IMG/VR virus record: IMGVR_UViG_3300022918_000180
Length of the DNA: 64,000 nt
Origin: a virus
Reading direction: 5' to 3' (one strand)
The notes under the pieces are model-generated. The model saw nothing but the letters and a program-made list of their open reading frames with translations. It was not told the DNA's origin and did not search any database. The position numbers and the translations under genes were made by a program. How positions within the stretch are numbered: position 1 is the first letter of the stretch; every line of letters begins with the position of its first letter. Shown piece by piece: positions 6,477 through 53,570 of this stretch.

Positions 6477-6483
6477 CAAAACC

Positions 6484-27423: not shown

Positions 27424-28918
27424 TTGGAGCAGCAGGTGATTTGGTCTTCCGGATAGTTACACCCTGCGTCTTCGGCTGCACAACTTTTCTGCGGTTCAAT
27501 TCCTGCTGGGCCGCGGCTTGAACGAACTCGGAAATGGCCACTTCACCGGTGCGGCCGGTGGCTTCCTTGCGGTCAGCACCGGGGGGCATCTGGAAGTTGG
27601 CTTTGATCCGCTCGGCGATACCTTCCGCGGGGTCGTAGGCCGGGCCGGTGATGTATTCCACGAGGGAGTTGCGGGTGCCGCCCTGGGCGAGCGCCTCCAA
27701 CTCCTCGTTGGTGGCTTCCTTGAGATTTGCCGCGCGGTAGGCTTCCGCTTTCCCGGCGTTCCAGAATTTGTTGGCCTCCTCGTCGGTGGCGGACTTCGGC
27801 AGCAGGCCGATACCCACGGGTGCCGGCTCGGCCTGGGCGGCGGGAACATCCGCTTCCAGATTCCCGGTCGCGCGGTTCAGGCTCAGGGTCTGCCCCGCCC
27901 GGCTGTTGGGGTCCTGCTCGATCCGGGGCGCGTCAGTGAGCACCTCCGCGCGCGGAGTCGGAGCATTCAGCTTTTGGATAGCACGGTTCACGGTCTCAAG
28001 CTCGATCTCTGCGGCCGGATCCGGTTCGCCATCTTCCAAAGCTGCCTCGGCTTTCGCTTTCCGTGAGAGCAGGCCGTTCATGATGGAGTTCTCCGACTTC
28101 ATCCGGTCGTCCTCCATCTTCTGACGGCGGGCGATGGAGAGCGGGTCCATGGGGAGTTGACCCTGCGCACCCACGGGCGGGGCCGCGGTGAACGCTGGAG
28201 CAGGCGTTGCATAGCTCGGAGGAGCACCGGCGACCGGAGTGTTGTCCACGGGGACCACTGGCGGGGCCAGCAGGTCCGCGCCGCCACCCGCGTCCGCCGG
28301 GTCATATGTGCCGGCCGGGATTGGCTCCATGATCAGCGGGTCCGCTCCAGGCCCCGAGGTGGTGGACGGCAGGTCGTAGCCCGGGTCGGTGTAGCCGGGA
28401 CCGGCGGAAGGGGTGTATCCAGACGCGCCCGACGGCTCGTAGCCCGCAGGCTGAATGACCGTCACGGCGTGGGGAGGCGGCATGCCCATGGCCACGGCGT
28501 CGGCATTGGCTTTGTTCTGCACGGCGGTGAGCGGGATGACCTTGGGGCGGCTCGCTGCGGTGGGCCGCCAGAACTTCTCCGGATTGGTGCGGCGCTCTTC
28601 CGCCAACATGCGGGCCTCCTCCTGCGCGGCAATCGACGCGGCGTCACGGTTGATGTTCGACATGGTGGCGGCGTAGTTCAACCCGCCGGGCTGGTCCTGC
28701 GCCTGCTGGTAGGCAAACTTCATTTCCGTGAGACCATATTGCGCCATCTGCTGCTCGTGCTGCCGTTGGCGGTTCTGCTCCTCCAGGCGTTGGTTCTCCT
28801 TGGCCCGGCGGTCGGCGATCATCATCTGTTCGCGGGCGAGCCGCTGTTGCAGGCCGAGCGTGACCGCGCCGAGCACGTTGGGCTGCTGACGTTCGTAAAA
28901 GTTGATGGGGATGGCCAT
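27416..28918 (-). CDS. internal virion / ejection protein
   Basis: 500 aa, Gln/Pro/Ala-rich, no Cys; podovirus-type synteny. Confidence 0.55.
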   Translation of the reverse strand: MAIPINFYERQQPNVLGAVTLGLQQRLAREQMMIADRRAKENQRLEEQNRQRQHEQQMAQYGLTEMKFAYQQAQDQPGGLNYAATMSNINRDAASIAAQEEARMLAEERRTNPEKFWRPTAASRPKVIPLTAVQNKANADAVAMGMPPPHAVTVIQPAGYEPSGASGYTPSAGPGYTDPGYDLPSTTSGPGADPLIMEPIPAGTYDPADAGGGADLLAPPVVPVDNTPVAGAPPSYATPAPAFTAAPPVGAQGQLPMDPLSIARRQKMEDDRMKSENSIMNGLLSRKAKAEAALEDGEPDPAAEIELETVNRAIQKLNAPTPRAEVLTDAPRIEQDPNSRAGQTLSLNRATGNLEADVPAAQAEPAPVGIGLLPKSATDEEANKFWNAGKAEAYRAANLKEATNEELEALAQGGTRNSLVEYITGPAYDPAEGIAERIKANFQMPPGADRKEATGRTGEVAISEFVQAAAQQELNRRKVVQPKTQGVTIRKTKSPAAPNG

Positions 28919-28921
28919 GAT

Positions 28922-30091
28922 TTAACCGCCGTAGCTGGCGCTGAGGTTCCGGACCGAAGTGGTGTCCTTGTAAGGGGAGTTGACGTTGGCATACTGCCCG
29001 CCGGTGTTCAGGCCGGTGCTGCCACCGCTGCCGCCCATGCCGCCGAACATGCTGCCCATGCCACCCATCAGGGCTCCCCAGTCCATGCCACCCATCCCGC
29101 CGCTGCCACCTGAACCGCCACCTGCTTTGGCCAGTTGCAACGCGAGGTCCTTCTCGAACATGCCCTTGGCCATCGGGTCCGGAGAGGCCCACAGGTTGTT
29201 GGCGTTCTGGTCGGAGGCGTATTGGTTCTCGGCCTGCTGGATGGCCAGCGAGGAAAGTTTGAGGTTCTCGTCGATCTTCCAAGGCACCGTCTCCCGCGGG
29301 GTGAGTTGGTATTCCTGCGGAGTGCCATAGTTGCCGCGCGGGTCGAGTTGCTCGGCCTGCTGGATGGCAGCACCGTTCAGCGCCACGCCCCGCTGGCGCA
29401 GGTCCATGTCGAGCAGGCCCAGGTCACGCGCGGTCAGCGCCGCCCCGGTGCCGGGAGTGCCCACGCTGCCGTTGATGCCGGTGCTGCGGGCCACGGTCTC
29501 CATGGAGTCACTCCACGATGCCTGTCCGTTCAGGTATTGATTGGCGAGATTGCTGGTGGTGCCGACGTTGCCCCACAGCGCGGGGCTGAACCCGTCCGCG
29601 CGGTTGCGGCTGGTGTCCTGATTGATGTCGGCGTTCTCCCGCAGGAGCCGCCAAATCTGCTGATTGGACGCGATGTTATCGTTGATCGTCTGCTGTTGGA
29701 TGGCACCGTAATCCTGCTTCTCCAAGGGCACCTCCTGATATTGCGCGGCCTCGGGGACGTAGCCGAACGCCGAGCGGTAGGCCCCGCCTGCGCCGCCCCC
29801 GGCACCACCGCCGGAGTTGGCAAATGGGTTGCCGGTGCCGCCGCCCTGGGCCACGGTGTCACCGCGCTCGACGTGGGCTTCGTAAATGGGACCTTCCGCG
29901 TAACCGTCGATGGCCCCACCGATGGCCCCGCCCCAGCCGCCCCACATGCCGCCGTATTTGCTGCCCTCGTTGTAGCCGGTCTGCGCGCCGTTGAGCGCAC
30001 GCTCCCAACTGGACATGTTGGCAATGCGGTCCCGCTCCGCCTTCTGACGGGCGGCGAGATCCTGTTCGTAGGTGGGAACGCGGGAGGCCAT
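28922..30091 (-). CDS. DNA pilot / ejection protein
   Basis: 389 aa, Gly/Gln/Asn-rich with amphipathic GG repeats, no Cys. Confidence 0.55.
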   Translation of the reverse strand: MASRVPTYEQDLAARQKAERDRIANMSSWERALNGAQTGYNEGSKYGGMWGGWGGAIGGAIDGYAEGPIYEAHVERGDTVAQGGGTGNPFANSGGGAGGGAGGAYRSAFGYVPEAAQYQEVPLEKQDYGAIQQQTINDNIASNQQIWRLLRENADINQDTSRNRADGFSPALWGNVGTTSNLANQYLNGQASWSDSMETVARSTGINGSVGTPGTGAALTARDLGLLDMDLRQRGVALNGAAIQQAEQLDPRGNYGTPQEYQLTPRETVPWKIDENLKLSSLAIQQAENQYASDQNANNLWASPDPMAKGMFEKDLALQLAKAGGGSGGSGGMGGMDWGALMGGMGSMFGGMGGSGGSTGLNTGGQYANVNSPYKDTTSVRNLSASYGG

Positions 30092-30094
30092 AAG

Positions 30095-31093
30095 TTACAT
30101 GCCGACGAAATTGCTCGGCTGATTGAAGGTGTCTTGGAAATTCATTTTGCGGCGGTGGCCGGTATCCTCCACCGCGGCTTCCGCGCCGATGAAGGCATCG
30201 AACATATTCTGCTTGAACATGGCGTTGGCAATCTCCGCCTGATCCATTTTTGAGGCGGCGGTGGTGCGGATGAACTGCGCGCCGGCGACCCAGGCCACGC
30301 GGTTGTCGTGCTCCACGATGTCGAGTTGGTCGTAAAGACGGGTGAAGCGGCGGAGGCCCTTGACGGCGATGGTCTTCCCCTGACCACAGACGCAGTCTCC
30401 GTTGATCCGGATGCGGCGGTAGGTGGGGACATCCTCGCCGGCGTCCCACTGGGCCACGTCCACGCCGTTGGCGCGCACCTTGACCGGACCTTTCAGGTCG
30501 AGCGGCAGGCGCACACCGGAGGGGGCCATGCTCTTTACCTTGGTGGGGAACGCGGTCCACTTGCCCTGCACCAGCGGGATGGAGTGGGTGACGAACTGAC
30601 CGATGTCGTCGATGTAGGAGGCGGTGACCAACTGGCCGGATCCGCACTTGGTGCCCATCACTTCGAGGATGAAAGGCTCGGTGCAGCCGGGATCACGCTC
30701 GAAGACATAGGTGTCACCCATGTCCTCGAACTTCCATTCAAAATTCTGCGATGCCTGCGGTTCGTAGGAAGCCCATCGGGTGACGTAGGGTAGAGTCACG
30801 CCCTGCCGGAAGATCATCACCGCCTGCTTCATCCACTTGGGCAAAGTGACCCCCGCCCACGGCTGACCGGAGGCGCTGCAGCCGCAGTAGCCGGGGTCGC
30901 ACGCCGGGCAGAAGCACTGGACGGGGACACAGATGTAGGAGGGCTTGGCATGCTCCAGCACCTGCCGGTTGTTGTAAGCCATCTGCCGGATGTCGTTCAT
31001 CAGCTCGATGAGCTTGTCCCGGTCGCATACCGCATCCTTCCCGATGGCTTCGGCAAGCCATCCGACAACGCGGCCAACAGTGGTTTGGTTCAT
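30095..31093 (-). CDS. virion structural protein, probable head-tail adaptor
   Basis: N- and C-terminal helices flanking a beta region; 11 Cys including CVPVQCFCPACDPGYCGC. Confidence 0.45.
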   Translation of the reverse strand: MNQTTVGRVVGWLAEAIGKDAVCDRDKLIELMNDIRQMAYNNRQVLEHAKPSYICVPVQCFCPACDPGYCGCSASGQPWAGVTLPKWMKQAVMIFRQGVTLPYVTRWASYEPQASQNFEWKFEDMGDTYVFERDPGCTEPFILEVMGTKCGSGQLVTASYIDDIGQFVTHSIPLVQGKWTAFPTKVKSMAPSGVRLPLDLKGPVKVRANGVDVAQWDAGEDVPTYRRIRINGDCVCGQGKTIAVKGLRRFTRLYDQLDIVEHDNRVAWVAGAQFIRTTAASKMDQAEIANAMFKQNMFDAFIGAEAAVEDTGHRRKMNFQDTFNQPSNFVGM

Positions 31094-31611
31094 TAGACTT
31101 GGGCGGTGACGATGACGGGGACTTCATTGTCCGAGGCGTAGGCCACGGTGACGGAGTTAGCACTGCGCTGGACAATCCACCAGCGCGTATTCGTGCCGGG
31201 GTCGCCAATAAAAGCAGCGTTCACGGTGTAGGGGCCGGTGAACAGAGCGGGATCGAGGTCCAGTGTGACTTCGGAAACGGTGCCGTTGGAGGTGCGCTGC
31301 ACACTGACGGTGGTGCGGTCGGGCACGTAAATGCCTCCGTCGCTGCCCAGCACCGCGAGGTTGCCGGCGTCATTGGAGACCTGCGAAAGGTTGATAGCGC
31401 CGCTGGCCTGCAGGTTTTTCAGCGTCTCGAAGAACGCCTCCTGGAGGGAGTTGATAACGTCTTTGGGGAAGACGATGATCATGGACTCGATGATCGTCCG
31501 CAGCAGGGCGTCGGTCTCCGGGTCGCGGTCAAGGTCCGGACGCGGCAGGACATCCAGTGTGGTGCCGTAGGTGTTGACACTGGAGGGGCTCAGGATGTGC
31601 GGGTTTTCCAT
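31093..31611 (-). CDS. virion structural protein
   Basis: VSNDAGNLAVLGSDGGIYVP motif seen in phage tail proteins. Confidence 0.5.
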   Translation of the reverse strand: MENPHILSPSSVNTYGTTLDVLPRPDLDRDPETDALLRTIIESMIIVFPKDVINSLQEAFFETLKNLQASGAINLSQVSNDAGNLAVLGSDGGIYVPDRTTVSVQRTSNGTVSEVTLDLDPALFTGPYTVNAAFIGDPGTNTRWWIVQRSANSVTVAYASDNEVPVIVTAQV

Positions 31612-33461
31612 TATGGTGTGCAGGATTCGATGATTTTGTCAGCCCAGTCCGAGCCATTGTTATACTCGTAGTCGTCGTCCACATACAAGTCCGGACATGG
31701 GTATTGTCCTTTGGTGTTGGTGTTTTCCCCCAAGGTGCCAGCAGGCTTCGGACCGAACCGGAGCATGACCGATGCCGCGCCCTGCCACCGGATCATGAAT
31801 TCGATCCGCTGCTCCTTCTCAGGCTGCGGAGGAAAAGCGCCCACCGATCGCAGACCATTCTTGAGCCCGCCCCGCTGCCACGTCTCGTGCCGGCGGCCCA
31901 GCGTCTTCCACTTTCCGCGCGGCTCGCGGTGCAGCACTTCCCACGTCAACGGGCCAACGGCGTCCTCCACCAGCAGGTGGACGAAGTCGCCATCCGTGCC
32001 TTGAAACATGGAGGATCCGAACTGCGGCGTGACCACGCGGGATTGGATAGGCTTTTTGTTGCCGCCTTCCAGAATGTCGTGCTCCAGATCCGGGCGGTAG
32101 CGCCAGACGGTGTGGCGCTGCTTCGAATGGTTCCAGCAGATGGCGAAAATTTCCTCCCGCTCCGAAAAGATGCCGCCGACGAACTGGACGGGACCACCGG
32201 CCTCGGGCGGCAGGCAGCGCAGGCCCTCCCATGCACCGAGACTGGAGCCGTCGGTGGGCACGCCCTGCTCCGGATCCTGACAGGCGGTGATGAAGCCGCG
32301 GTGCCAGCGGTGGAGACCGCGGCTGAAGTTATAGACTGTGCAGAAGATCCGCTGCTTGGTCTCGTGACGGATCATGGAGTTGAAGCGCAGCAGCTCCGCG
32401 AAGTCGCCGGCCATGGCGTAGCGCATCGGCCCGGCGAGATCATGGTAGGGGCTGCCGGGGGTGTTGCGTTCGGCCCGGGCGCTGCGCAGGGACTGGATGC
32501 CTTTGCGGGAACGGAAGGCGATGTCTCCATCCCAGTGGCATTGGCCGAACGGCCCGGAGGCCGCGGTATTCAAAATCGCGTGTTTGGAGATCACCTTGGT
32601 CCCCCAGTCGGTGCGGGGCCAGACGTTGGTGTCCGCCGACCAGGTGCCGCCGGGGTTGGGGCAGAAGGCGATCATCTCGCCGTGGCCATGCTGGGTGTCC
32701 TGCAACGGAAGGATGTCCAGCGAGAGGATCGGCCCCATGTTGGAGGGTGGCGAGAGGAACTGACCGGTGGCCAGATAGACCTGCTCGGTGGTGGCGAGGA
32801 TGTTCTCCGCGCTGCTGTAATTGGTGCGGTGGACCGGGTCACCCACGATCACGGCGTTCATGCCATTCATGCGCACCCCGATGTGGAGTTTGGCATGGAG
32901 GTAGCGCACGGGCCCCGCGTAATTGGGGAGCTGGGAGTTGTCCTTGTCGATGACGTTATACCCGCTGCTCCACCGGGTGGTGTTGTCGCGGCCGTCGATG
33001 ATCATCGTCAGGCCGACGCTGTCCGTGCGGATGAAATAGTATTCCGCTCCCTCGCCCCAGGCGAGCTGCACGTTCTCGGAAGAACGCAGGCCGTTGCTGG
33101 CGTCCTGCAGCGTGAAAGTGAACCGTCCGTTGGTGCGGTTGGGTTTGAGCCGGAACATGCGGCCCTTGACGGAGTGGAGGATCTGCGCGGCCTCTTCGGC
33201 AAAACGGATGGCCGATTGCCCGAGGGCCGGGTTAAAGTAAAATGCACCTTGGGTGTTGCCGGTCCGCCAGTCGTTGAGCAGCCCCTCTTCGCCCTCCACC
33301 GGGACATGCTCCCAACCGTGGGCGGTGCGGGCCATCCGCAGATGCAACCGGATGTTGGTGGCCCGTTGAATCTGATCGTTCCCGAGGATGAACGGATGCA
33401 CCTCGCTGCGCACTCCACCGGTCGGGAAGCCTAGCGGAAGGACATTTGCAGGCAGAGCCAT
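31611..33461 (-). CDS. tail nozzle / tubular protein B-like
   Basis: 616 aa beta-rich; N-terminal FPTGGV..N pattern of nozzle proteins; start MALPANV at 33461. Confidence 0.55.
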   Translation of the reverse strand: MALPANVLPLGFPTGGVRSEVHPFILGNDQIQRATNIRLHLRMARTAHGWEHVPVEGEEGLLNDWRTGNTQGAFYFNPALGQSAIRFAEEAAQILHSVKGRMFRLKPNRTNGRFTFTLQDASNGLRSSENVQLAWGEGAEYYFIRTDSVGLTMIIDGRDNTTRWSSGYNVIDKDNSQLPNYAGPVRYLHAKLHIGVRMNGMNAVIVGDPVHRTNYSSAENILATTEQVYLATGQFLSPPSNMGPILSLDILPLQDTQHGHGEMIAFCPNPGGTWSADTNVWPRTDWGTKVISKHAILNTAASGPFGQCHWDGDIAFRSRKGIQSLRSARAERNTPGSPYHDLAGPMRYAMAGDFAELLRFNSMIRHETKQRIFCTVYNFSRGLHRWHRGFITACQDPEQGVPTDGSSLGAWEGLRCLPPEAGGPVQFVGGIFSEREEIFAICWNHSKQRHTVWRYRPDLEHDILEGGNKKPIQSRVVTPQFGSSMFQGTDGDFVHLLVEDAVGPLTWEVLHREPRGKWKTLGRRHETWQRGGLKNGLRSVGAFPPQPEKEQRIEFMIRWQGAASVMLRFGPKPAGTLGENTNTKGQYPCPDLYVDDDYEYNNGSDWADKIIESCTP

Positions 33462-33466
33462 CGGGG

Positions 33467-34663
33467 TTACGGGAGGAGGGCGAGGACGTAGACGACCGCC
33501 AGATGCGAGCCGACATTGCCGGCGAAGGCGATTTGATAGAAGTTGTTGATGTGCAGGATGCCGTCGTCGGGGATCGGGATCTCCACGGTATTCTGGTTGT
33601 CGTTGGACGCGCTGTCCGCCGCGCATGCATTGCGGGCATACTCCTTACCATTGATGGCAATCCCGGCATCGAAATGCTGGGAGATCGTGGTGGACTTGCA
33701 GTGGATGTGCAGGCGGACCGTCTTGTGGCTCGGCAGGTAACCGGGCAGCAGGGTGAGATCGACGGGGAAATCCGGGTTGGCTACAACCGGCAGCGCGCCG
33801 GGAGTGTTCACCGATGGGAAATAGCTGATGCCGGTGATCGGTCCGACGGATTTGTGCTGGAGGTAGACTTCTTCCCACGGCTCGAAGATCACCGGGTCTC
33901 CGATCCCAAGCAGGCGTTTGACCTGCGTCCAGTTGGCCCCGATCAGCTTTTTAACTTTGTTGCTGCCGTTGGTGCAGCCTTCCTCCCGCCAGAACGCGAG
34001 GCTCAGTTTGATGTCCTCCGGGTCCTCGGCGTCGATGAGGTCAGCGTCCACCACCGGGTCCACGACGGCCTGCTGCCATTGGTCGAGGGAATACCAGGTG
34101 TAGTTGTCGATAACCTCACCGCCGGTCAGCGTAACACTGTCCTTGATGTAGCCGAGCATCTTGGGGGACACGCAGTTCCCACCCGTGTTTTGCTTGCCAG
34201 CTCCGAGAAGTTGAGGGTTGATCGATACCGGCTTACCGGAACTTGGGCAGCTCTCCCGCTGCCAGCCGTGGATGAACCCGGTATTCGAAGCCGCGGGAAG
34301 CATCTTGACCAGTTTCAAAGGATCGACAGCGCAACCAGTAGTGGTTTCGAAGTATGCAGGCCAGTGGGATTTGGTGGCATCGGCAGCAGGTATGTTGGAA
34401 AATTCGGGAGCATCAAGGGGCCCCACGTAATCAGGGCCGCCGCAGTTGTCAGGATTATGCTGCCAGCTTCCTTTTATGGTTTGAGGTTGGCTTAGACAAC
34501 CTGTGACAGTGTCCAACGCTGTCAGTGTGGTCCCCTGCGAGGCATCGCTGGGTGCCAGTCCGATCAGCCTGGCGTCACAGAACCTTGCGGCGTTAGGATC
34601 GCCGACGAAGTCGAAGTTCTCCGGAATCGGGGGTGAGGAGCAGGGTGAGTTTGGGCACGCCAT
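33467..34663 (-). CDS. Cys-rich virion structural protein
   Basis: Start MACPNSPC; 11 Cys in 398 aa; C-terminal beta-sandwich-like region. Confidence 0.5.
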   Translation of the reverse strand: MACPNSPCSSPPIPENFDFVGDPNAARFCDARLIGLAPSDASQGTTLTALDTVTGCLSQPQTIKGSWQHNPDNCGGPDYVGPLDAPEFSNIPAADATKSHWPAYFETTTGCAVDPLKLVKMLPAASNTGFIHGWQRESCPSSGKPVSINPQLLGAGKQNTGGNCVSPKMLGYIKDSVTLTGGEVIDNYTWYSLDQWQQAVVDPVVDADLIDAEDPEDIKLSLAFWREEGCTNGSNKVKKLIGANWTQVKRLLGIGDPVIFEPWEEVYLQHKSVGPITGISYFPSVNTPGALPVVANPDFPVDLTLLPGYLPSHKTVRLHIHCKSTTISQHFDAGIAINGKEYARNACAADSASNDNQNTVEIPIPDDGILHINNFYQIAFAGNVGSHLAVVYVLALLP

Positions 34664-34719: not shown

Positions 34720-34747
34720 TTGACTTTGATCGTATTTACCGCAAAAT
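34720..34747 (+). promoter_or_regulatory. putative promoter for the portal operon
   Basis: TTGACT-16-CAAAAT, 9 nt before the portal ATG, in a divergent intergenic gap. Confidence 0.45.
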
Positions 34748-34756
34748 GGGCCACAG

Positions 34757-37150
34757 ATGGACGCTACCTTAGACAAAGACCCGGCTGCCCCCGACGCCAC
34801 CAAGTCGGAGATGACCGAGAAGGTCGATAGCATCCTCCATCTGGTAGACGACTGGAAGCAGAAGAATTTCCATGCCAATCGAAATTACGCGGAACTGCTG
34901 CGCCACTTCAACGGCGGGAACCTGACGGTGGCAAAGGACAAAGAGGGCAAAGAGGTCGCCGCCTATGCGAACTTCAACGTGGCCCGCAGCCGGTTGCAGA
35001 AGATCGGCCGGGAGATGATGTCGATTTACTACTCGAAGATGGGTATATTCGACCTGAAGATTACCGGAGAGGATCTGAAGAAGACCCCGGGACTCGAACT
35101 GGCAGCCAATGAGGCCCTCGCCAAAATCTTCCGCTCCGACATGCGGTTCACGCCGCAGTATGAGACCACGGTGCAGGACGCCATTCTCTGCGGACGCGGG
35201 GTGATGTGGCGCCGGAGCAAGACGCATATCATCCCCGAGCGCGCCCGCCTCCTGGCCGATCCATCCTGCATGGCCTCCGTCCGGGATGACTCGTTCGCCG
35301 AGTGGGCCTTTGAAAGCACCGTCAAAGCCGCGGACCTCTTCCGAATTTCCAAGAGCACCGAGGATCCGGAGCTGAAGTCTCAAGCCGCCAAGCTGCTCAA
35401 GGCCATCGTGAACCGCCATTCCTGCGAGTCCACGCTGCTCAACTGGCCCGTGCATGAGGAGTGGGAAGACTTTGAGACCGTCCTTCGCACCACCACGGTT
35501 GGCCGGCAGGCGCTGGCCACGGTCATCCCCTGCTACTGGTATTTCGAGAAGGACCTCTCCGGCAACCCCGGCAAGCGGCCGGTGACGGTGTTCTGCGTGG
35601 CGCGTCACGGCGTTGATCTCTCCATCGTCTCAGGTGACGACGGCAAAGTCTCGTCCAGTAAGACGGAGACCAAGGATGCCGCGGAAGGAATGATCTTCCG
35701 GAAAAAGGATGCTTTCGACGACGTGACGGATTGTGTGTGGTTGCTGGGGCGCAACCAGCAGTTCGGCGGCGCGCCCACCCTGGGGGCCTGCAAGGGTGAA
35801 GGCGAGATTCAATACACCGGCGACATCCGCATCCAGAAGATGCTCAACTCCATGGTGCGCCGCATCGAGGTGGAGAACCTGATCCTGCTGAAGAACACCG
35901 GCGGCGGGAACAAAAACGAGATCGACAATTTTTCCAAACTCCCGATCTCCGATCAGGACATCATCCCGGAGGGCGTGGACTTCGTGGAGAAGCGCTTCGG
36001 CGACAAGCCGCTGGCGCAGATGATGGGCTTCGTGGACATGCTCTCCGGCTATGCCGCGGACCACGCCGCGGTGGACACCGGCCACACCGACGCCCCGCAG
36101 GACGAGGACTTCAAGGCCCAGGTGATGGAGCGTCTTCAGGACCGCGCCGCCGCCAAGAGCGTCAGCGAGAGCGCATGGACGGACGGGTTGGACAAGCTGG
36201 CCACGGCTCTCGGGGTGGCGTTGTTCGACTCCACGCTGGTGGATGCCGACGAGGCCAAGATGCTTCAGGACGAGTTTTTCAAAGAGCTGGAGGACGCCGG
36301 GTTCAAGGACATCAAACCGAAGGATTTCAAAGGCAACGTCCGGATGTCCGCCCGCCGCATGCCCGGTCACGGCGACCCGGCGGTGGCCATGGCCCGGGCG
36401 GATGCCAACATCGCGCTCGCGCAGATGACCGGACCGGAGGCGGTGAAACGCGCGGTCTTCGAGAAGGCCGTGCTGGTCAATGGCGGCGACTACCAGAAGG
36501 CCATCACCCTGCTGGGCGGCGTGCCGGACGGACCGGCCGAGCCGCAGTCGATGGACGTGCATATCGCCTCCGCGCAGATGTCTTTGATCCTCAGCTCCGG
36601 AGTGCAGCTCGCGCCGCAGGCCGGCGACAATCCTTTCGTCCACACCATGGTCCAGATGTCCGTGCTGGAGAACATGCTGGGCAATTTCCAGAAGCTCGGC
36701 GGCTGGACGGCCTTCGAGCAGTCCTGCTGGGACGCCGCCCTGGCCCACGCCATCGCCGATGTCATGCGCATGCCCATGGAGGACGCGCAGAAGGAGTCCA
36801 TGAAGCGGATCAAGGTCATCCAGATGGCGGCCTACCGCCTGGAGGTCTTCAAGCAGGGCGAACCCGAGGTGGACCCGCTCGACTTGATGAAGCTCCAGCA
36901 GAACGCCGAGGAGCTGGCTCGCAAGAAACAAAAAGACCTCGACGGCAACCAGAAGTGGGTCATCACCCAACAGAACCGCGAGACCATGGGCGGACGGCAG
37001 ATGGCGTTGCAGGAGCGGCAGACCATCGTCAACGAGTCCCGTCTGGAGAAGAAGGACAGCCGCGACGCCGCCAGTCAGAGTTTGAATGACGCCATTTCCC
37101 TGAACGAGGCCACGCGGCCTGAACCGCCAAAAGAAAAATCCGCCGCATGA
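34757..37150 (+). CDS. portal protein (probable)
   Basis: 797 aa, helical, with C-terminal coiled coil; first gene of the operon containing scaffold and TerL. Confidence 0.6.
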   Translation: MDATLDKDPAAPDATKSEMTEKVDSILHLVDDWKQKNFHANRNYAELLRHFNGGNLTVAKDKEGKEVAAYANFNVARSRLQKIGREMMSIYYSKMGIFDLKITGEDLKKTPGLELAANEALAKIFRSDMRFTPQYETTVQDAILCGRGVMWRRSKTHIIPERARLLADPSCMASVRDDSFAEWAFESTVKAADLFRISKSTEDPELKSQAAKLLKAIVNRHSCESTLLNWPVHEEWEDFETVLRTTTVGRQALATVIPCYWYFEKDLSGNPGKRPVTVFCVARHGVDLSIVSGDDGKVSSSKTETKDAAEGMIFRKKDAFDDVTDCVWLLGRNQQFGGAPTLGACKGEGEIQYTGDIRIQKMLNSMVRRIEVENLILLKNTGGGNKNEIDNFSKLPISDQDIIPEGVDFVEKRFGDKPLAQMMGFVDMLSGYAADHAAVDTGHTDAPQDEDFKAQVMERLQDRAAAKSVSESAWTDGLDKLATALGVALFDSTLVDADEAKMLQDEFFKELEDAGFKDIKPKDFKGNVRMSARRMPGHGDPAVAMARADANIALAQMTGPEAVKRAVFEKAVLVNGGDYQKAITLLGGVPDGPAEPQSMDVHIASAQMSLILSSGVQLAPQAGDNPFVHTMVQMSVLENMLGNFQKLGGWTAFEQSCWDAALAHAIADVMRMPMEDAQKESMKRIKVIQMAAYRLEVFKQGEPEVDPLDLMKLQQNAEELARKKQKDLDGNQKWVITQQNRETMGGRQMALQERQTIVNESRLEKKDSRDAASQSLNDAISLNEATRPEPPKEKSAA

Positions 37151-38324: not shown

Positions 38325-39593
38325 ATGAGCACCGAAACTCTCGAACCGCCTGCCGCCGAACCGGCGGAAAATCTTTTTGCCCAGTTGGATAGCCTGCTGG
38401 CCGGCGACTACTCCGACGATCCCCCACTGGAGACCGAGCTGGCGGTTGACCCTCCACCTGCAAAAGAGGACGCCCCTCCGGTTGAAGCTGACAAGAAGCC
38501 CGATGACGAGGCCCCGCCGGCCGAGCCCTCACCCAAACCCGGTTCCTTCAAAGCCCTGAAGCTGGAGAAGGAGCGTGAGATGGCCGAGACCAAGGCCAAG
38601 TATGAAGCTGATCTGGCGGAGGCCAACGAGCGTGCTGCGAGGTTTGAGACCGAGGCCAAAACCCACGCGGAGAAGGTCGGCTCGGCGGAGGCACTGCGGC
38701 TGGCCCATGAGAAGGAGCTGACCGAATTGCAGCAGAAGATCGTCGCTGAATACGAGACGCCCTACTCCCTGGAGTATGATCCCGATGCTCAGAAACCACT
38801 GGCGGATCTGCGCGAGTCCGAGAAGATGCTCGACCACGCCGTGCGTCAGGCCGCCACCAGTCTCGGCTCCAACCAGCAGGCGGCCAACGCCATCTTCCAG
38901 AACAAGAAACTCTTCGCCGGTGTCCTCGGGTCCATGGCCCAGGGGCTGACTCCGGACGTGGAACACGCCGACTATCTGGTCACGGAACTCGGGAAGATGG
39001 GAGTGGCGGTCTCCGCCGAGGATGCGAGGGACGCGGTGCGCGGACTGAAAACCGCCGTGCCCCAACTGGGCCGCTATCAGGACATCACCCAGTATCTGAA
39101 GAACCTGCAGGCCAAAAACGAGCCAGAGTGGACCAACCAGCAGGCCGCCCGTCACGAAGCCTACCGCCGCGAGGTGTTGAAGCACGCGGACGTGGCGGAC
39201 GATGCCGCGGAGGGCGATGACGCCACCATGGCGGCCATTCTCAAAGCCAACCCGGAACGCCGGACGAAGTTGCAGGCCGAGGCCGACCGCCTGAGTGCTC
39301 AGATCATCGGCCCCGCGCCCGGCAAGGCTACCGCCGCCGCCGTCCGCGCCGCGCCGCAGGTGCTCCATCAGAACGCCGTCAAAGCCGCGCGGCTGCCAGT
39401 GGCTCTGGAAGCCTACCGCGAGACCTCCGCGGAGAACGCCACTCTCAAAGCACGGGTCGCGGAACTGGAGGCGCGCATCGGCAAGGAGTCCGGCGGCATC
39501 CCCAAACCCGCGGGCACCGTGACGCCGGTGAAGGCCACGCTCTCCGGCAAAAATCTCGATGACGAGCTGAAACGCGCGTTGGAAATGAAATGA
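38325..39593 (+). CDS. capsid scaffolding protein (probable)
   Basis: Acidic Pro-rich N-terminus, long coiled coils, basic C-terminus; between portal and TerL. Confidence 0.55.
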   Translation: MSTETLEPPAAEPAENLFAQLDSLLAGDYSDDPPLETELAVDPPPAKEDAPPVEADKKPDDEAPPAEPSPKPGSFKALKLEKEREMAETKAKYEADLAEANERAARFETEAKTHAEKVGSAEALRLAHEKELTELQQKIVAEYETPYSLEYDPDAQKPLADLRESEKMLDHAVRQAATSLGSNQQAANAIFQNKKLFAGVLGSMAQGLTPDVEHADYLVTELGKMGVAVSAEDARDAVRGLKTAVPQLGRYQDITQYLKNLQAKNEPEWTNQQAARHEAYRREVLKHADVADDAAEGDDATMAAILKANPERRTKLQAEADRLSAQIIGPAPGKATAAAVRAAPQVLHQNAVKAARLPVALEAYRETSAENATLKARVAELEARIGKESGGIPKPAGTVTPVKATLSGKNLDDELKRALEMK

Positions 39594-41677
39594 GCATCGT
39601 CACCCGCATACCCTATCCTTCGGCGATTTTCGAGGACTTCGAGTTCCTCGTCGATCCGTTGCAGGGTATGACCTACCAGCACGAGTGGGCCACGAAGAAC
39701 AGACGCCCGTGGAATGCCGTTTCACAACTGGAGGCGGAGGCTGCCATCCTCCGGGAGTGGTGCGAGGACAACGCCATCCATCTGCCGGCCAAGCGGATCG
39801 AGTTCCACTACATCCGCTACGCCACGCTGTTGATGAGCTGGAAAACCCGCAAGGGTGCGCGGGCGTTTGACCCGGATCCGTGGTATCAGGAGAACGTCTG
39901 GTGCTGGTTCCGCTCGATGCGCGAAGACCGCGCGGGCTCCTGCTTTTTCGGCAACCAGAACCAGGGCAAGTCCGAGTTCTTTTGTCTGCAGGCGGTGTGC
40001 CTGGGGTGCCTCCACCCCCACAGCACCAACCAGATCATGATGGCGCCCGTGAAGCAGAACAACACGGTGGCGATTTGGGGGCGCTTCCTGGAAATTGCCA
40101 AGGGAGTTTCCCTCCACTGCAAGGCGCAGGTGGCGGCGCTCGGCGCGGACATCGACTTTGTGGAGTCCTCCGCGGTCATTTATTTTACAAAAACCCGGCC
40201 CGGCGGATTCATCCGCCTCACCGCCGCCTCCGAGTGCGGCGGCGTGCAGGGCACCAAGGAACGCGAGGACGGGTTCCTCGTCCACTATCTGGACGAGATC
40301 GGGAACGACTATCCGAAGGGTGGTGCCGGATGGCTGGCCACCATCCCCAACATCTCCTCGAATAACCGCTACTTCTGCATGCTCTCCGCCAACCCGCGCA
40401 ACCAGATCGGCGGTCTGGACAGCGAGATGGAACCCTACGAAGGGTGGGGGAGCCAGACCGAGAACGACTACTTCTGGAAGGCCGGGCAGCACAACATCAA
40501 CGTCTACCGGCGCGCGGGGCATCAGTCTCCCAACTTCCGGCACGAGGTGGGCGGGCTGCCCATCGACGAGGCCATGTCCACCCGCGACAAGGACCGCCGC
40601 GTGGGCCTGCACGGTCCCTACCCGTGGCTCTACAACGGCCGCCGCGAGGCTAAACTGCTGGCCACGGTCAGCGGCAACCGCAACGACCCCCGCTACAAGG
40701 AGCAGGCCCTGGGCATGATGCCCGCCATGAGTCTGACCCTGCGGGTGATCACCGAGGCGGACGTGAAGGCCAGCGGGATGGACCTGCCATTCCTGTGGGT
40801 GGCGGCCAAGGGCGAGAAGAACGTGATCATCCACCGAGTGGCGTTCCTCGACCCAGCGAAGACCGCCGGCGGCGACCGCAACGTGCTGACCCTGCTGGAG
40901 GTGGGGAGCCGTCTGGAGGGGGACCTGATCGTCCCGAACATTTTCATCCGCGAACAGATCGAGCTGGTGCCCACCGGCAAAAAGGTGGTGGATCACCAGT
41001 GGCTCCTCGATTGCTCGCGCATCCGGAAAAAGGAGCAGGGCAACGGCAGTCTCGGCGACCCTATTTCGTTTCCCCGGGAGCTGGCCATGCTCGCGGCCAT
41101 CCAGTGCAACGAGTGGAAGGTTCCATTCTCCCACTTCGGCTTCGATGACACCATGTCCGGCGAGGTGACCTTCGCCATGGCCTTCATCTTCGGGCAGGCG
41201 TGCGTGCCGCTGGCCTTCGGCGGCATCGCCAGCAAGCGCCCGATCACGCCCCGCAAATGGTTGGGCGAGGGCAAGGACCGGCAGCCGGTGCGCTACTGCG
41301 ACATTCACAAAAAACACGTCACGGAGCTTTACAGCCGCATGGCCCACTGGATGCGCGGAGGATACCTGCGCATGAACCAGGCGGCCAACGGCAAACCCGA
41401 CCGCTGGATCCGGGAGAGCATCCAGCGGCAGTGCAAGCGCCACAGCGAGACCGGTTGGGACGTGGAGACCAAGGCGGAATACAAGGCCCGCAAATATCAG
41501 GTCTCGCCCGACTTCGGGGACAGTCTCGTGGGGGCGCTGCACATGGTGGAGGTAAAAGGCATGTTGCGGGTTGAAGCTCCGGTCGGTGACGGCGATGATG
41601 ACTACTTCCCCAACCGTAAATCCTTCTCCAAGGACCTCACACTCTCCAACTTCCATTACGAACCTGCCGCCGCATGA
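39590..41677 (+). CDS. terL: terminase large subunit
   Basis: Walker A GNQNQGKS, Walker B HYLDE, SANP coupling motif, nuclease FLDPAKTAGGD and SPDFGDS. Confidence 0.85.
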   Translation: MSIVTRIPYPSAIFEDFEFLVDPLQGMTYQHEWATKNRRPWNAVSQLEAEAAILREWCEDNAIHLPAKRIEFHYIRYATLLMSWKTRKGARAFDPDPWYQENVWCWFRSMREDRAGSCFFGNQNQGKSEFFCLQAVCLGCLHPHSTNQIMMAPVKQNNTVAIWGRFLEIAKGVSLHCKAQVAALGADIDFVESSAVIYFTKTRPGGFIRLTAASECGGVQGTKEREDGFLVHYLDEIGNDYPKGGAGWLATIPNISSNNRYFCMLSANPRNQIGGLDSEMEPYEGWGSQTENDYFWKAGQHNINVYRRAGHQSPNFRHEVGGLPIDEAMSTRDKDRRVGLHGPYPWLYNGRREAKLLATVSGNRNDPRYKEQALGMMPAMSLTLRVITEADVKASGMDLPFLWVAAKGEKNVIIHRVAFLDPAKTAGGDRNVLTLLEVGSRLEGDLIVPNIFIREQIELVPTGKKVVDHQWLLDCSRIRKKEQGNGSLGDPISFPRELAMLAAIQCNEWKVPFSHFGFDDTMSGEVTFAMAFIFGQACVPLAFGGIASKRPITPRKWLGEGKDRQPVRYCDIHKKHVTELYSRMAHWMRGGYLRMNQAANGKPDRWIRESIQRQCKRHSETGWDVETKAEYKARKYQVSPDFGDSLVGALHMVEVKGMLRVEAPVGDGDDDYFPNRKSFSKDLTLSNFHYEPAAA

Positions 41678-42306
41678 ACAAGTGCCTCATCGCCCGCTCC
41701 GACACCTACGGGATTCCCGGCGGGTGGAGGCTCACCCATCCGGCTCTCGGCGGACAGACCATTCTCGAACGCTCGCCTGAGCACGCGGTGGCGGCACTGG
41801 AGGCCATGCTGCGGGTCAACAACTTCGCCACCACCCGTGACGACTTGTGGGCCTATGCGAACGGCGTGTGGGGCCGCGCGGTGATCGCGTCCGGGGAAGC
41901 CGACCGCTGGATGGGCGGCCCGTTGCCGGACGATACGCTCGCAGCCGCGGAGGCGCCGGCGTTCATGCGCCGGCTGCTCAACCCGAAGGACTACGGCGGG
42001 GTCCTGTGGGGCACGCTGCACCTGCTCCCGCTGGTCTGGACCAAAGATGCGTGGATGGCGCACATCGCGCTGATGACCAGGATCATCGAGCCCGGCGGTT
42101 ACGAGCAGGGCTGCCCAATCTGCGCGGCTCACTGGAAGAGCTTCCTGTCCACCACTCCTCCGGAGTTCATCTCGTCAGCGTCGGCGGCGGCGGACTGGTC
42201 CCTGCGGGCGCACAATTCCGCGAGCAGTCATGCCGGTCACCCGCAGTGGACGTGGCGCGAGGCCGCTGAGAAGTGGGGCTGGCCGGGCGAGTGGGAGGCG
42301 GAATAA
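41674..42306 (+). CDS. ERV1/ALR-family FAD-dependent sulfhydryl oxidase
   Basis: NPKDYGGVLWGTLH, CPICAAHW (CxxC-x2-H), DWSLRAHN..S..G..W: the complete Erv motif set; ATGA-coupled to terL. Confidence 0.78.
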   Translation: MNKCLIARSDTYGIPGGWRLTHPALGGQTILERSPEHAVAALEAMLRVNNFATTRDDLWAYANGVWGRAVIASGEADRWMGGPLPDDTLAAAEAPAFMRRLLNPKDYGGVLWGTLHLLPLVWTKDAWMAHIALMTRIIEPGGYEQGCPICAAHWKSFLSTTPPEFISSASAAADWSLRAHNSASSHAGHPQWTWREAAEKWGWPGEWEAE

Positions 42307-42308: not shown

Positions 42309-42348
42309 GACCCGCCCAATTACGCATCGTTGAGAGGCGGGGCGGGTC
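42309..42348 (-). terminator. intrinsic terminator between convergent units
   Basis: GACCCGCCC...GGGCGGGTC followed by TTTTATT on the minus strand. Confidence 0.5.
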
Positions 42349-42353
42349 AGAAT

Positions 42354-42556: not shown

Positions 42557-42709
42557 TCACAGGCGCCCCATCAAGAACAAAATCAGTAAAACCAGCAACA
42601 CGAGGCCCACGCCGCCGTTGACGTAGTGGCCGCCACCGTAGCCGCCGGTTCCGAAGCCACCGAGCAGGACGAGAACGAGGAGGACGATGATAATGGTGGA
42701 GAGGCTCAT
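42557..42709 (-). CDS. DUF3309-like small membrane protein
   Basis: MSLSTIIIVLLVLVLLGG..GY..GGVGLVLLVLLILFLMGRL. Confidence 0.7.
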   Translation of the reverse strand: MSLSTIIIVLLVLVLLGGFGTGGYGGGHYVNGGVGLVLLVLLILFLMGRL

Positions 42710-43041
42710 GGTGCTGGTGTATTTTGGGATTCCACAAAAGCCCGCCATTCGGGCACGGCATTGACGATGGCCCCGAAGGCCTGGGCGACGGTCCCGGTCG
42801 GATCGGACTCCAAGTGGCTGAAGAGCTTGCCGCTCGATAGGGTCAGCCTGGCGCTTTCCGGTCCGAGCTTGTTTAGTGCCCGGTTGTAGGGCATGAGTTC
42901 CATGGAGACGTGCCCGGTGTCGGGGTTCTCCTCGGTGGGCAGAGCGGTGACTTCAATCACCATCTTGGTGATGTAGAGTTCGTCGAATTCTTCCCTTTCG
43001 GTGGGAGGGATCACGAGGGGTTCAGAAAGGGCGATGGGCAT
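42706..43041 (-). CDS. hypothetical protein (possible fibre-associated chaperone)
   Basis: 111 aa acidic ORF downstream of the fibre gene. Confidence 0.5.
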   Translation of the reverse strand: MPIALSEPLVIPPTEREEFDELYITKMVIEVTALPTEENPDTGHVSMELMPYNRALNKLGPESARLTLSSGKLFSHLESDPTGTVAQAFGAIVNAVPEWRAFVESQNTPAP

Positions 43042-44072: not shown

Positions 44073-44393
44073 TTAGAGAATTTCAGTCACAATCCAGTTC
44101 GTGCCGTTGGTGCGGACGGTCACTCTCGCGGCTCCGCCTCCGGTTACGGTTGCCCCAATGGTTGGAGCCAAAGCGTTGGTGACTTCAAAGCGGACGCGGG
44201 CGACGGCTCCGGGGGCGGGAAGTTGAGCAACGGTCCTTTCACCGAGCACGTAGCCGCCGAGATTTGCCTGGAACCCCGCCAGTTCACCGAGCCCCTTGAG
44301 AATGGCGTAGGTGCTCTGGTTGATGCGCGCGAGTTCGTGCCGCTCCTGCACTTTCACGAGCGGGTAAATCAGGGCGTCTTCGATGAGGGACAT
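44073..44393 (-). CDS. short paralog of the fibre protein
   Basis: Shares KVQERH.L.RI.Q.T.A.L.GL.ELA and IG.TV.GGGA..V.V..NGTNW with 43065-44060. Confidence 0.65.
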   Translation of the reverse strand: MSLIEDALIYPLVKVQERHELARINQSTYAILKGLGELAGFQANLGGYVLGERTVAQLPAPGAVARVRFEVTNALAPTIGATVTGGGAARVTVRTNGTNWIVTEIL

Positions 44394-47735: not shown

Positions 47736-47758
47736 GGTTTTGGAGGGTATTTGAAATT

Positions 47759-48444: not shown

Positions 48445-48459
48445 AGTTTTGATTGGTTC

Positions 48460-49965: not shown

Positions 49966-49968
49966 CGG

Positions 49969-51767: not shown

Positions 51768-53570
51768 TTACACGTCTTCGGGCAGGGCGGGGAAGGCCAC
51801 CACCGTGGTCGTGCAGGACGTGTTGGGGAGCAGCACGGCAGCCTGGGGAGCAGGGAGCACGTTGCTGTAGTTGATGTTGAACTGGGTGCCGGGGGTGGCA
51901 GTCGAGAGCAACGTGACGTTGAAGCACTTGGTGCCGCACTCCTTGTCAGCCCAGGACAACGTGCCGCTGGTCGTGGTGTATTCGTTCCCGGCACCGGCGG
52001 TAGCCGTTCCGGGAGCGGTGGCGTAGTCGAGGGAGACGATACCATTGGCGGCGTAACCGGCAGGGACGGTGCGGGTGACGCAGACCTTGAGGAGCAGCGT
52101 TCCGGCTTCCACTTCCACGCGGCACTCGGTGGTGAAGACACCGTAGGAGAGCGGCAGGGCGGTGGCGGTCGCGCAGGCTTTCTCCTCGGCACAGGTCAGT
52201 CCATCCACGGGGCAGCCCGGGGAAATGCCGACAGGAGCCAGGGCGCGATTGGTCACGGGGTCAAGGCCGATGCGGTTGGCCACCATCTCGTAGCCGGGGA
52301 GGCGGCTCCAGAGGATGGCGGTGGCGCGGGGCTGCTCGGGGTCCATCTTCCACGCCTGCTTCAGGCGGGGTTTGAACTTGTCCTCGTTCTCATTGCACTG
52401 GAGGAACGCACCCCCGATGAACTTGACGGAGCTGGCGATGGACCACGCTTCGGCACCGTTGGTGACCGGGGTGGAGGCGTCCAGACCGATGGGGCGCATG
52501 GAGTAGGCATCCTTGGCGGCAGCCCAGATCGGGGAGACCAGATCGTGGGAGACACCGGAGTTGTCCGTGAAGCGGGATCCCTGGTAACGGGAGTCACTGA
52601 AGGCGCGCACCCCGCGGTTCACCGCCTTCCACAGGCGGCGGTCGATGGGGACGAACTGACGGGTGCTGGGACCGGTCTGCTTGATGTAGCCGAACGGAAG
52701 GTCCGCGATTTTGACGGTGATGCCGTCCACGGAGATGGTCTTGCCCACGCTGTATTCCGGGATCTGCGGTCCCATGAAGTTCATGGCCTGAACCTGGAAG
52801 CCGGCCGAGCCATTGAACTGGCGGGAGAGGAACCAACTGCGGGCGACACGCTCGTGCATGTGCCAGACCTTTTCCCCGGCGAAGTCGTTGCCGCGCAGGT
52901 GCTCCTCGAACATGAGGGCATTGTTGCTGGTGAAGACGCTGTCCGGAGTGTGGGGGATGCTGCCCAGGGTGTAGGCCGGATAATCCTCGCTGATGATCGA
53001 GCTGTTCCAGCCGTTCTTCTGCATGGTCACGAAGATGTTCCAGTCGCGGATGCGCATGGCGGCGCGGCTCAGACCCCGGGTCATGGCTTTGATGTATTGG
53101 GCGAAGAGGCCGCGGTTTTTGCCGCGGTATTCCCAGATGCAGTGCTCCTTGTCCTCGACCTGGATGTATTGGGCCTTGCCGCGGAACTCCTCGGAGCCGC
53201 TGGCCAGCACAGTGAGCCCGCGGGGGGAACAGGCGGTGTGGCTGTCGTCGGCGATGATCGCGGCCACCTGCTCGGTGGACATGCAGTCATTGGGGGAGAA
53301 GTTTTTCGTGGAATCCGTGTGGGTTTCCTTGAATTCGGGGGCCTCCACATAGGTGTTCATGAGGTCCATCGAGTAGATCCGGTTCAGCTCGTCATCCTGG
53401 TAGGATGCCGGGCCCATCTGGAAATGGTTCACGAGGGAGAGTTCGTGCTGGAGGGCCTCGCGGTTGTCCTCCCATCCGCGTTCGCGGATGATGCGTTCGG
53501 CGAGAGTAAGTCCGGCGTCCGCCCAGGAGGCAGGTTGTCCGTTTACGAGTAGATTGCAGCCACAGGCCAT
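51768..53570 (-). CDS. major capsid protein (probable) with C-terminal Calx-beta domain
   Basis: First late gene after its own promoter and long leader, followed by a hairpin; C-terminal VTR..GIVSLDYATAPGTATAG.EY..TSGTLSW matches Calx-beta; 14 Cys. Confidence 0.6.
   Translation of the reverse strand: MACGCNLLVNGQPASWADAGLTLAERIIRERGWEDNREALQHELSLVNHFQMGPASYQDDELNRIYSMDLMNTYVEAPEFKETHTDSTKNFSPNDCMSTEQVAAIIADDSHTACSPRGLTVLASGSEEFRGKAQYIQVEDKEHCIWEYRGKNRGLFAQYIKAMTRGLSRAAMRIRDWNIFVTMQKNGWNSSIISEDYPAYTLGSIPHTPDSVFTSNNALMFEEHLRGNDFAGEKVWHMHERVARSWFLSRQFNGSAGFQVQAMNFMGPQIPEYSVGKTISVDGITVKIADLPFGYIKQTGPSTRQFVPIDRRLWKAVNRGVRAFSDSRYQGSRFTDNSGVSHDLVSPIWAAAKDAYSMRPIGLDASTPVTNGAEAWSIASSVKFIGGAFLQCNENEDKFKPRLKQAWKMDPEQPRATAILWSRLPGYEMVANRIGLDPVTNRALAPVGISPGCPVDGLTCAEEKACATATALPLSYGVFTTECRVEVEAGTLLLKVCVTRTVPAGYAANGIVSLDYATAPGTATAGAGNEYTTTSGTLSWADKECGTKCFNVTLLSTATPGTQFNINYSNVLPAPQAAVLLPNTSCTTTVVAFPALPEDV

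Follow-up and report, generated by a model that had tools for sequence, protein, structure and literature searches.

An Erv/ALR-family protein encoded behind a divergent large terminase gene in a temperate tailed phage

Can a tailed phage form the disulfide bonds of its own virion while it is still inside the bacterial cytoplasm? To our knowledge, disulfide bonds are thought not to form in that compartment, and phages are assumed to use the host Dsb system or oxidation by air after lysis. Sulfhydryl oxidases of the Erv/ALR family have so far been described from eukaryotes and their large DNA viruses only, and among the latter vaccinia virus E10R and African swine fever virus (ASFV) pB119L form virion disulfides in a reducing cytoplasm. 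The question is raised by a gene in the IMG/VR virus record IMGVR_UViG_3300022918_000180, from which we analyzed a stretch of 64,000 nucleotides (nt), hereafter the window, that represents nearly the whole of a 65,352-bp contig. A reading of the letters alone (the sequence-only reading) had proposed that a 210-amino-acid (aa) open reading frame (ORF) directly behind a terminase gene encodes an Erv/ALR oxidase that makes disulfide bonds during head assembly. We conclude that the product is almost certainly a genuine Erv-family homologue in a tailed phage, and assign a probability of about 0.6 to the reading that it is an active flavin thiol oxidase making virion disulfides in the cytoplasm. The features that define the locus, in window coordinates, are:

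41674..42306, plus strand: gene of the 210-aa two-domain protein (ORF with ATGA overlap; PF04777, E = 4.6e-6; family profile against the PDB, E = 2.6e-16; AlphaFold2 (AF2) model with a predicted local distance difference test (pLDDT) of 77.6)
41674..41928, plus strand: N-terminal domain, residues 1–85, a β-hairpin and two helices with an IPGGW motif (pLDDT 74–93)
41983..42297, plus strand: Erv/ALR-type five-helix domain, residues 104–208 (model helices mapped to motifs; Foldseek)
42112..42123, plus strand: codons of C147-P-I-C150, the putative redox-active site (conserved throughout 14 close and 43 broad family members)
39590..41677, plus strand: divergent large terminase subunit, 695 aa (feature and structure neighbors; invariant motifs)

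Sequence and fold of the two-domain protein

The 210-aa ORF is real, and the peptides quoted from it in the sequence-only reading are present in its translation. As a single sequence, the protein matched the Pfam family PF04777 (Evr1_Alr) across profile positions 3–92 of 93, while a phmmer search of the PDB gave weak matches to Erv1 and ALR only. Thirteen full-length metagenome relatives were found at 53–65% identity, and an exhaustive profile search of 1.84 billion representatives returned 184 proteins at E ≤ 1e-3; the top 150 representatives, each standing for one cluster at 50% identity, were surveyed for architecture. A profile of 43 two-domain family members spanning 19–65% identity (alignment A2) was searched against the whole PDB and matched only Arabidopsis Erv1, ASFV pB119L, yeast Erv1, ALR, Erv2, QSOX and mimivirus R596, with E-values from 2.6e-16 for Arabidopsis Erv1, through 4.5e-14 for pB119L, to 5.5e-5. 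All 43 members of A2 also matched PF04777 (best E = 3.6e-13).

The AF2 model consists of a small N-terminal α/β domain, a disordered linker (residues 88–113) and five C-terminal helices (111–121, 124–138, 148–160, 169–186 and 194–201). Foldseek analysis against the PDB revealed that the best 34 matches are all Erv, ALR or QSOX structures, with template modeling (TM) scores by target of up to 0.71, and the best 30 matches among the clusters of the AlphaFold database (AFDB) are all sulfhydryl or thiol oxidases. The family motifs fall where this fold places them: W112-x3-H116 lies on α1, the CxxC opens α3, W175 and H180-N181 lie on α4, and K200-W201, which aligns with the RW of Erv1 and ALR, lies on α5. 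C147-P-I-C150 directly precedes the helix at 148–160 and aligns with the CxxC of Erv1, ALR and pB119L. G108, W112, C147, C150 and H180 are invariant in the 43 sequences of A2, and 74 of the 79 two-domain representatives carry a CxxC in the Erv domain. The PF04777 match, the PDB-wide profile, the invariant CxxC, and a predicted structure for which Foldseek gave Erv/ALR folds only bear out the family assignment of the sequence-only reading. We regard the homology and the fold as established; FAD (flavin adenine dinucleotide) binding and oxidase activity are predicted from family resemblance.

The N-terminal domain had no match to any known family in Pfam or in the PDB and AFDB structure searches. 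It is joined to the Erv domain in 79 of the best 150 representatives, a diverse set with a consistent architecture, and G16, G17, W18, P35, W66 and R78 are nearly invariant in the 43 sequences. The whole protein contains three cysteines, C4, C147 and C150. No cysteine of the N-terminal domain is conserved family-wide, C4 being invariant in the close subfamily only. A further CxxC, at residues 3–8, is found in 11 of the 79 representatives (P0039, P0062, P0064, P0086, P0093, P0113, P0146, P0161, P0163, P0165 and P0167), where it sits on an added N-terminal extension and resembles the shuttle arm of Erv1 and ALR. The electron-shuttle role that the sequence-only reading had offered for this domain is not supported by this distribution; the domain probably docks to substrates or to the assembly machinery rather than transferring electrons. 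In two other representatives, P0034 and P0053, the linker between the domains contains a Cys-rich insertion.

The terminase gene and the morphogenesis operon

The name terL given to the upstream gene in the sequence-only reading stood in part. The 695-aa protein had no match in Pfam or PHROGs, none among cultured phages by tblastn and none among PDB sequences with a profile of six sequences, whereas its feature and structure neighbors and its Walker and acidic motifs agree with the name. Its language-model neighbors in the Atlas (0.98) are viral clusters with Terminase_6N, Terminase_6C and TerL_ATPase, and its Atlas model aligns with terminase clusters, herpesvirus terminase subunit 3 among them, at TM scores of 0.52 by query and 0.76 by hit. 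The protein has a Walker A motif GNQNQGKS (residues 121–128) and a Walker B motif LDE (234–236), and G121, K127, D235, E236, D421, D429, D519 and D644 do not vary even in relatives of as little as 22% identity. On its motifs, predicted structure and context, we accept it as a very divergent large terminase.

The Erv gene is the last gene of a plus-strand, presumably late operon, whose other elements are:

34720..34747, plus strand: promoter-like site just 5' of the first operon gene (TTGACT-16-CAAAAT, 9/12 matches)
34757..37150, plus strand: portal-sized protein, 797 aa, first gene of the operon (size, gene order)
38325..39593, plus strand: scaffold-like protein, 422 aa, acidic, coiled-coil-rich and without Cys (where the gene lies with respect to portal-sized and capsid-candidate genes of distant relatives)
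42309..42352, no strand assigned: GC-rich hairpin between convergent operons (3 nt past the Erv stop; U-run on the minus strand)

The ATG of the Erv gene (41674–41676) overlaps the TGA (41675–41677) of the preceding ORF as ATGA, confirming the overlap claimed from the letters, and inspection of the sequence before the start revealed no Shine-Dalgarno-like sequence. Together, the overlap and the lack of a Shine-Dalgarno sequence of its own suggest that translation of Erv is probably coupled to that of the 695-aa terminase-family gene. The GC content of its third codon positions (GC3) is 0.87, the same as in adjacent genes, and the gene is therefore compositionally native. The N-terminus, read from the sequence, is not hydrophobic, and the protein lacks a membrane segment or signal peptide, from which we predict a cytoplasmic location. 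The hairpin (ΔG −23.5 kcal/mol, z −3.3) ends the plus-strand operon. The promoter-like site, the sole one found against 1.4 expected by chance, is weak evidence for a promoter. A 63-aa glycine-rich ORF with two hydrophobic segments (42557–42748, minus strand) closes the minus-strand operon that converges on Erv; it is holin-like in shape only.

The gene content of the window identifies the source as a temperate tailed phage. The window encodes a primase-helicase (DUF5906/PriCT_2), a DUF2800 nuclease, an Enc34-type single-stranded-DNA-binding protein (SSB), a family-A DNA polymerase (PolA), an SNF2 helicase, a tyrosine integrase, the anti-Pycsar protein Apyc1, an Amidase_2 endolysin, a GT25 glycosyltransferase and an SGNH hydrolase. 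The integrase, PolA, primase-helicase, Enc34 SSB, Apyc1 and Amidase_2 genes bear out the tailed-phage setting that the sequence-only reading had assumed, and most structural genes of the window are unmatched in Pfam and PHROGs. Apyc1, a counter-defense gene at the contig edge, encodes a 418-aa protein (104–1360, minus strand; Pfam E = 1.3e-25). One Erv relative, 62% identical, lies on a contig of a Sphingomonadaceae metagenome-assembled genome (MAG), which, together with a GC content of 61%, suggests an alphaproteobacterial host, with freshwater Sphingomonadaceae as the leading candidates. Among 301 genomes of the family of this MAG, and again among 401 of its phylum, PF04777 occurred in one, and the hit was each time the MAG contig itself.

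We then compared the 12 loci with sequence upstream of Erv, six from the close subfamily and six distant, one of the latter on a Tara Oceans scaffold, which together represent seven lineages. Membership in the terL family was assessed with a hidden Markov model (HMM) built from the close subfamily alone. In each of the 12 loci, across all seven lineages, the ORF immediately before Erv belongs to the terL family, so that the synteny proposed from a single genome was found throughout the survey. The HMM gave E-values of 6e-13 to 9e-29 at the five distant loci with adequate upstream flank and 5.8e-9 against the partial upstream ORF of the remaining one (L032), and the gap from terL to Erv ranged from −4 to +178 nt. 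A locus scan with the close-subfamily alignment found three further metagenome loci; A2 was too divergent for such a scan.

In the distant lineages, terL and Erv are followed by genes for proteins of about 750–790, 90, 425–480 and 600 aa, a layout that matches the familiar terminase, portal, scaffold and coat series except for Erv, which has been inserted behind terL. The operon of the window instead runs from the 797-aa portal-sized protein through a β-helix protein, a 150-aa protein and the 422-aa scaffold-like protein to terL and Erv. The adjacency of terL and Erv has outlived this rearrangement of portal and scaffold gene order. An HMM of the close-subfamily 797-aa protein matched the gene just after Erv in two distant loci, L025 (E = 3.8e-19) and L039 (E = 6.6e-14). 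The 797-aa protein has no family match, and its profile gave no usable match among PDB sequences; size and gene order suggest that it is the portal, and gene order in distant relatives suggests that the 422-aa protein is the scaffold. Between the β-helix and 150-aa genes, two relatives carry a Cpn10 (GroES-like) gene (L001, 5891–6154; L004, 4941–5201) that is absent from the window. L004 also has an Acb3 gene (5688–6506), which acts against the cyclic-oligonucleotide-based antiphage signaling system (CBASS), inserted in its head module.

These loci also bear on whether the gene belongs to the phage at all. One might suspect a chimera of the assembly, or contamination by a gene of a giant virus or a eukaryote, as a pattern search of IMG/VR gave giant-virus Erv genes as the nearest relatives. 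The same terL-Erv junction, however, recurs on many contigs that were obtained independently, with different assemblers and from different samples. The gene is native in codon composition, and the giant-virus proteins differ, being 125 aa long with a membrane anchor and only 26–31% identical. An artefact is thus effectively refuted and extremely improbable.

Cysteine distribution in the virion module and a proposed role of the Erv protein

If the protein oxidizes virion proteins, these may be sought among the products of the structural genes. The genes of the window average 1.36% Cys overall. The minus-strand genes concerned are:

21862..30091, minus strand: three consecutive genes for proteins of 1853, 500 and 389 aa without Cys (presumed internal or ejected virion proteins)
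30095..31093, minus strand: adaptor-like protein, 332 aa, 11 Cys (3.3%), candidate substrate (Atlas features, 0.98 to SU10_adaptor clusters)
31611..33626, minus strand: 671-aa ORF, 9 Cys (true start probably about 50 codons later, as in 614-aa orthologues)
33467..34663, minus strand: fibre-like protein, 398 aa, candidate substrate (N-terminal ~250 aa conserved and Cys-rich, C-terminal ~150 aa variable)
51768..53570, minus strand: Calx-beta-containing protein, 600 aa, 14 Cys, major-capsid candidate and candidate substrate (follows a scaffold-sized gene in distant relatives)

Cysteine is partitioned sharply among these proteins. The 1853-, 500- and 389-aa proteins have none in 2742 residues, with normal Trp and Met. 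Five proteins of the virion module lack it altogether, the three above, a 172-aa protein (31093–31611, minus strand) and the 422-aa scaffold-like protein (38325–39593, plus strand), for which the joint probability at the Cys content of the window is about 1.5e-20, Trp and Met again being normal. In the relative L035 (12015–20519), the 307-aa and 481-aa proteins, 40–48% identical to those of the window, are likewise Cys-free, as are the first 2042 residues of a 3634-aa protein (DUF7178) that has only a short local match with the 1853-aa protein. In none of the orthologues examined, among them the two distant ones of alignment A5, does the scaffold-like protein contain Cys.

Other virion-module proteins keep their cysteines. 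All 11 of the adaptor-like protein are retained in 68%-identical orthologues. In the fibre-like protein, whose start we placed at an internal Met by orthologue comparison and which has no Pfam match, eight Cys columns are invariant in seven orthologues against a mean residue conservation of 0.35, and Cys is more conserved (0.73) than Trp (0.52). Orthologues of the 671-aa ORF carry 11–12 Cys with eight conserved columns; this ORF has no family match in Pfam or PHROGs and is possibly a tail nozzle or tube protein. Over 10 sequences that reach down to 20% identity, the 600-aa protein has four invariant cysteines (C5, C114, C144 and C460) and four nearly invariant ones (C96, C392, C483 and C586); its capsid-family leads are weak (0.81), and its AF2 model (pLDDT 42.6) was unusable. 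As indirect evidence, the split fits an oxidizing assembly milieu in which external parts would be stapled by disulfides and proteins that are removed or ejected would avoid Cys. The tail and adaptor proteins are as good candidate substrates as the capsid candidate, and the sequence-only reading is not supported in its more specific points, a role in head assembly and a targeting of the procapsid by the N-terminal domain.

Virion disulfides could be real and yet owe their formation to spontaneous oxidation or to host Dsb enzymes, after lysis or in the periplasm, leaving the Erv protein dispensable or a mere accelerator. Such formation is the current default view for phages (PMC13576161), and positioned cysteines can oxidize in air. 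It leaves unexplained why at least 79 clusters at 50% identity keep an Erv protein with an intact active site in the morphogenesis operon, and we consider it very unlikely.

We propose instead the following course of events. The Erv protein would be made by translational coupling with the terminase during morphogenesis and would bind FAD; O2 would receive the electrons of the substrate thiols by way of the CxxC and then the flavin. In the still reducing cytoplasm it would install disulfides in the fibre-like, adaptor-like, 614–671-aa tail and 600-aa capsid-candidate proteins, with the N-terminal domain mediating docking to these substrates or to the assembly machinery. The 1853-, 500- and 389-aa proteins and the scaffold-like protein, which need to stay unfolded or be ejected, would have been purged of Cys to avoid cross-linking.

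Several observations weigh against this proposal, beginning with the enzyme itself. The protein scores 27.4 bits against PF04777, 0.2 below the gathering cut-off of 27.6. The sequence-only reading had listed the W...HN.VN..LGK motif of the family, which is degraded in the close subfamily but intact in distant relatives: the close subfamily reads HNSASSHAGH, in which VN and LGK of the flavin-contact helix α4 are replaced and N181 is kept, whereas distant members retain HNxVNxxLGKP, and 35 of the 79 representatives have HNxVN. H116, present here, is Asn in many relatives. In view of these replacements, FAD binding is not assured. A shuttle disulfide is also absent, and cysteines outside the active site are not conserved across the A2 family. 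On the substrate side, the cysteines of the adaptor-like protein lie close together (C-x4-C-x-C-x2-C-x4-C-x-C) and could just as well be metal ligands, neither terL nor the portal-sized protein keeps its Cys positions from one distant lineage to another, and the capsid, portal, fibre and ejected-protein identities are drawn from gene order, size and weak leads. Finally, a CxxC scan of all window genes, with Pfam searches of the candidates, found no thioredoxin- or glutaredoxin-like relay, although a divergent partner is possible. A 73-aa ORF in the replication module (7880–8101, plus strand), with CPLC at residues 6–9 and a layout like that of a small redoxin, was considered as a glutaredoxin/NrdH-type protein and rejected, having no Pfam match.

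The degraded flavin-contact motif on α4 and the single-sequence score under the Pfam cut-off would suit a derivative of the Erv fold that has lost its redox activity or its flavin and acts as an accessory in assembly or packaging, for instance as a partner of the terminase or portal, with a structural or metal-binding CxxC; tight coupling to terL hints at a packaging role. We judge such a derivative quite unlikely. The CxxC, W112 and H180 are invariant over 19–65% identity, and distant members have the full canonical motif. Moreover, 11 representatives have gained a shuttle-like N-terminal CxxC arm, which is sensible only for redox chemistry, and functional viral Erv proteins such as vaccinia E10R are also very divergent.

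An active Erv oxidase might otherwise act on targets other than virion proteins, namely host thiols (glutathione, thioredoxin-dependent enzymes or a thiol-dependent defense) or through H2O2, in a late takeover or counter-defense role. The conserved catalytic motifs are compatible with this, other counter-defense genes are present (Apyc1 in the window, Acb3 in the head module of L004), and neither a relay partner nor a proven substrate was found. Against it, the Erv gene holds a fixed position in seven lineages, either in the interval between terL and the portal-sized gene or at the operon end after terL, and not in variable accessory islands, and the conserved Cys partition of the virion proteins would go unexplained. 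Action on host targets is therefore unlikely in our estimate, and an oxidase of virion proteins remains the reading that we prefer.

Beyond the enzyme, a wider picture can be drawn tentatively, at somewhat less than even odds: a widespread, uncultured group of tailed phages may possess the first dedicated phage disulfide machinery, coupled to terL, equipped with a phage-specific docking domain, independent of Dsb and shaping a virion of Cys-rich outer and Cys-free inner proteins. Genes for a GT25 glycosyltransferase, a metallophosphatase and an SGNH/GDSL hydrolase lie amid the structural genes of the window (46176–51258, minus strand). Distant relatives encode glycosyltransferase-sulfotransferase fusions (L033, 3146–4873; L038, 1437–3065; L039, 8829–10814) beside terL or after the scaffold-sized gene. 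Transferase genes among the structural genes hint that virion proteins are also glycosylated or sulfated. With these enzymes added, the same tentative picture becomes a "secretory-pathway-style" virion maturation in the cytoplasm, parallel to that of giant viruses.

Upstream of the Amidase_2 endolysin gene, two adjacent genes, for 331-aa (43065–44060, minus strand) and 106-aa proteins (44073–44393, minus strand), have paralogous N-terminal stretches of about 40 residues and no family match; they may encode alternative tail-fibre or spike modules with a common anchor.

Should the preferred reading be true, the assumption of Dsb or air oxidation would be overturned for a diverse group of phages, the self-made virion disulfides of giant viruses would extend to Duplodnaviria that infect bacteria, and the split between Cys-rich and Cys-free virion proteins would be explained. 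The question is directly testable, since the enzyme and its candidate substrates are defined. The family could also yield a compact sulfhydryl oxidase adapted to the bacterial cytoplasm for the production of disulfide-bonded proteins, a task for which yeast Erv1p is in use today.

Comparison with known systems

A 2026 structural paper reports no dedicated disulfide machinery known in phages. In our searches, tblastn of three Erv family members and terL against 50,697 GenBank phage records returned nothing but one giant virus (Mollivirus), PHROGs had no family for the Erv protein or for 10 distant relatives, and no phage Erv came up in full-text searches of the literature. These searches of cultured phages, PHROGs and papers agree with the remark in the sequence-only reading that no characterized Erv enzyme is known in a tailed phage, and they did not turn up an annotated one either. 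An IMG/VR scan gave 15 loci (L006–L020) that we rejected as phage Erv genes; they are prasinovirus-like giant-virus genes on contigs with a nucleocytoplasmic large DNA virus (NCLDV) capsid, PolB and Topo II. These proteins share the LWGTLHL motif with the phage protein and an Erv domain at 26–31% identity, but they consist of a single domain (125 aa in all), carry a membrane anchor at the C-terminus and have the canonical HNLVNARLGKP, and they form a clade of their own (97 in the Shimodaira-Hasegawa-like approximate likelihood-ratio test, SH-aLRT). In the Erv-domain tree, the two-domain proteins cluster strongly, with 12 label changes against 52.8 in shuffles; the tree, whose "Erv-only" rows include gene fragments, does not demonstrate a single origin.

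The nearest counterparts in strategy are ASFV pB119L (PDB 3GWL), vaccinia E10R and mimivirus R596. Like them, the phage protein is a virus-encoded Erv domain with a single active-site CxxC and no core shuttle disulfide, and its cytoplasmic use during morphogenesis, as we infer it, would be the same; its fold matches pB119L with a TM score of 0.69. Judged from gene order, the oxidase likewise stands among morphogenesis genes, as in the viral cytoplasmic disulfide pathway. It differs in its bacterial host, its place in a tailed phage (Duplodnaviria), its orphan N-terminal domain, the lack of an anchor and the coupling to terL, and the flavin motif of helix α4 is degraded in the phage close subfamily, unlike in giant-virus Erv. 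Equivalents of the relays in the vaccinia E10R-A2.5L-G4L and ASFV pB119L-pA151R pathways were not found in the window.

With the cellular enzymes, namely Arabidopsis Erv1 (2HJ3), yeast Erv1 and Erv2, mammalian ALR and QSOX, the phage protein shares the five-helix fold, W-x3-H, the CxxC opening α3, W...HN on α4 and the C-terminal (R/K)W, and Arabidopsis Erv1 is the best sequence match of the phage family profile. The cellular proteins act in mitochondria, the endoplasmic reticulum or the secretory pathway; they possess a shuttle arm with CxxC or CxC and, in most cases, a structural disulfide, whereas the phage protein has neither. The Dsb system (DsbA/DsbB), which the host encodes and which works in the periplasm, makes the same product by an unrelated fold, a thioredoxin fold with a membrane quinone reductase; the phage Erv protein, in contrast, is phage-encoded, predicted to be cytoplasmic and, by its family, linked to flavin and O2. 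Neither the enzyme family nor the viral strategy is new in itself; new are the virus realm in which they occur, the architecture of the protein and its genomic coupling, as is the conserved Cys partition of the virion module described here.

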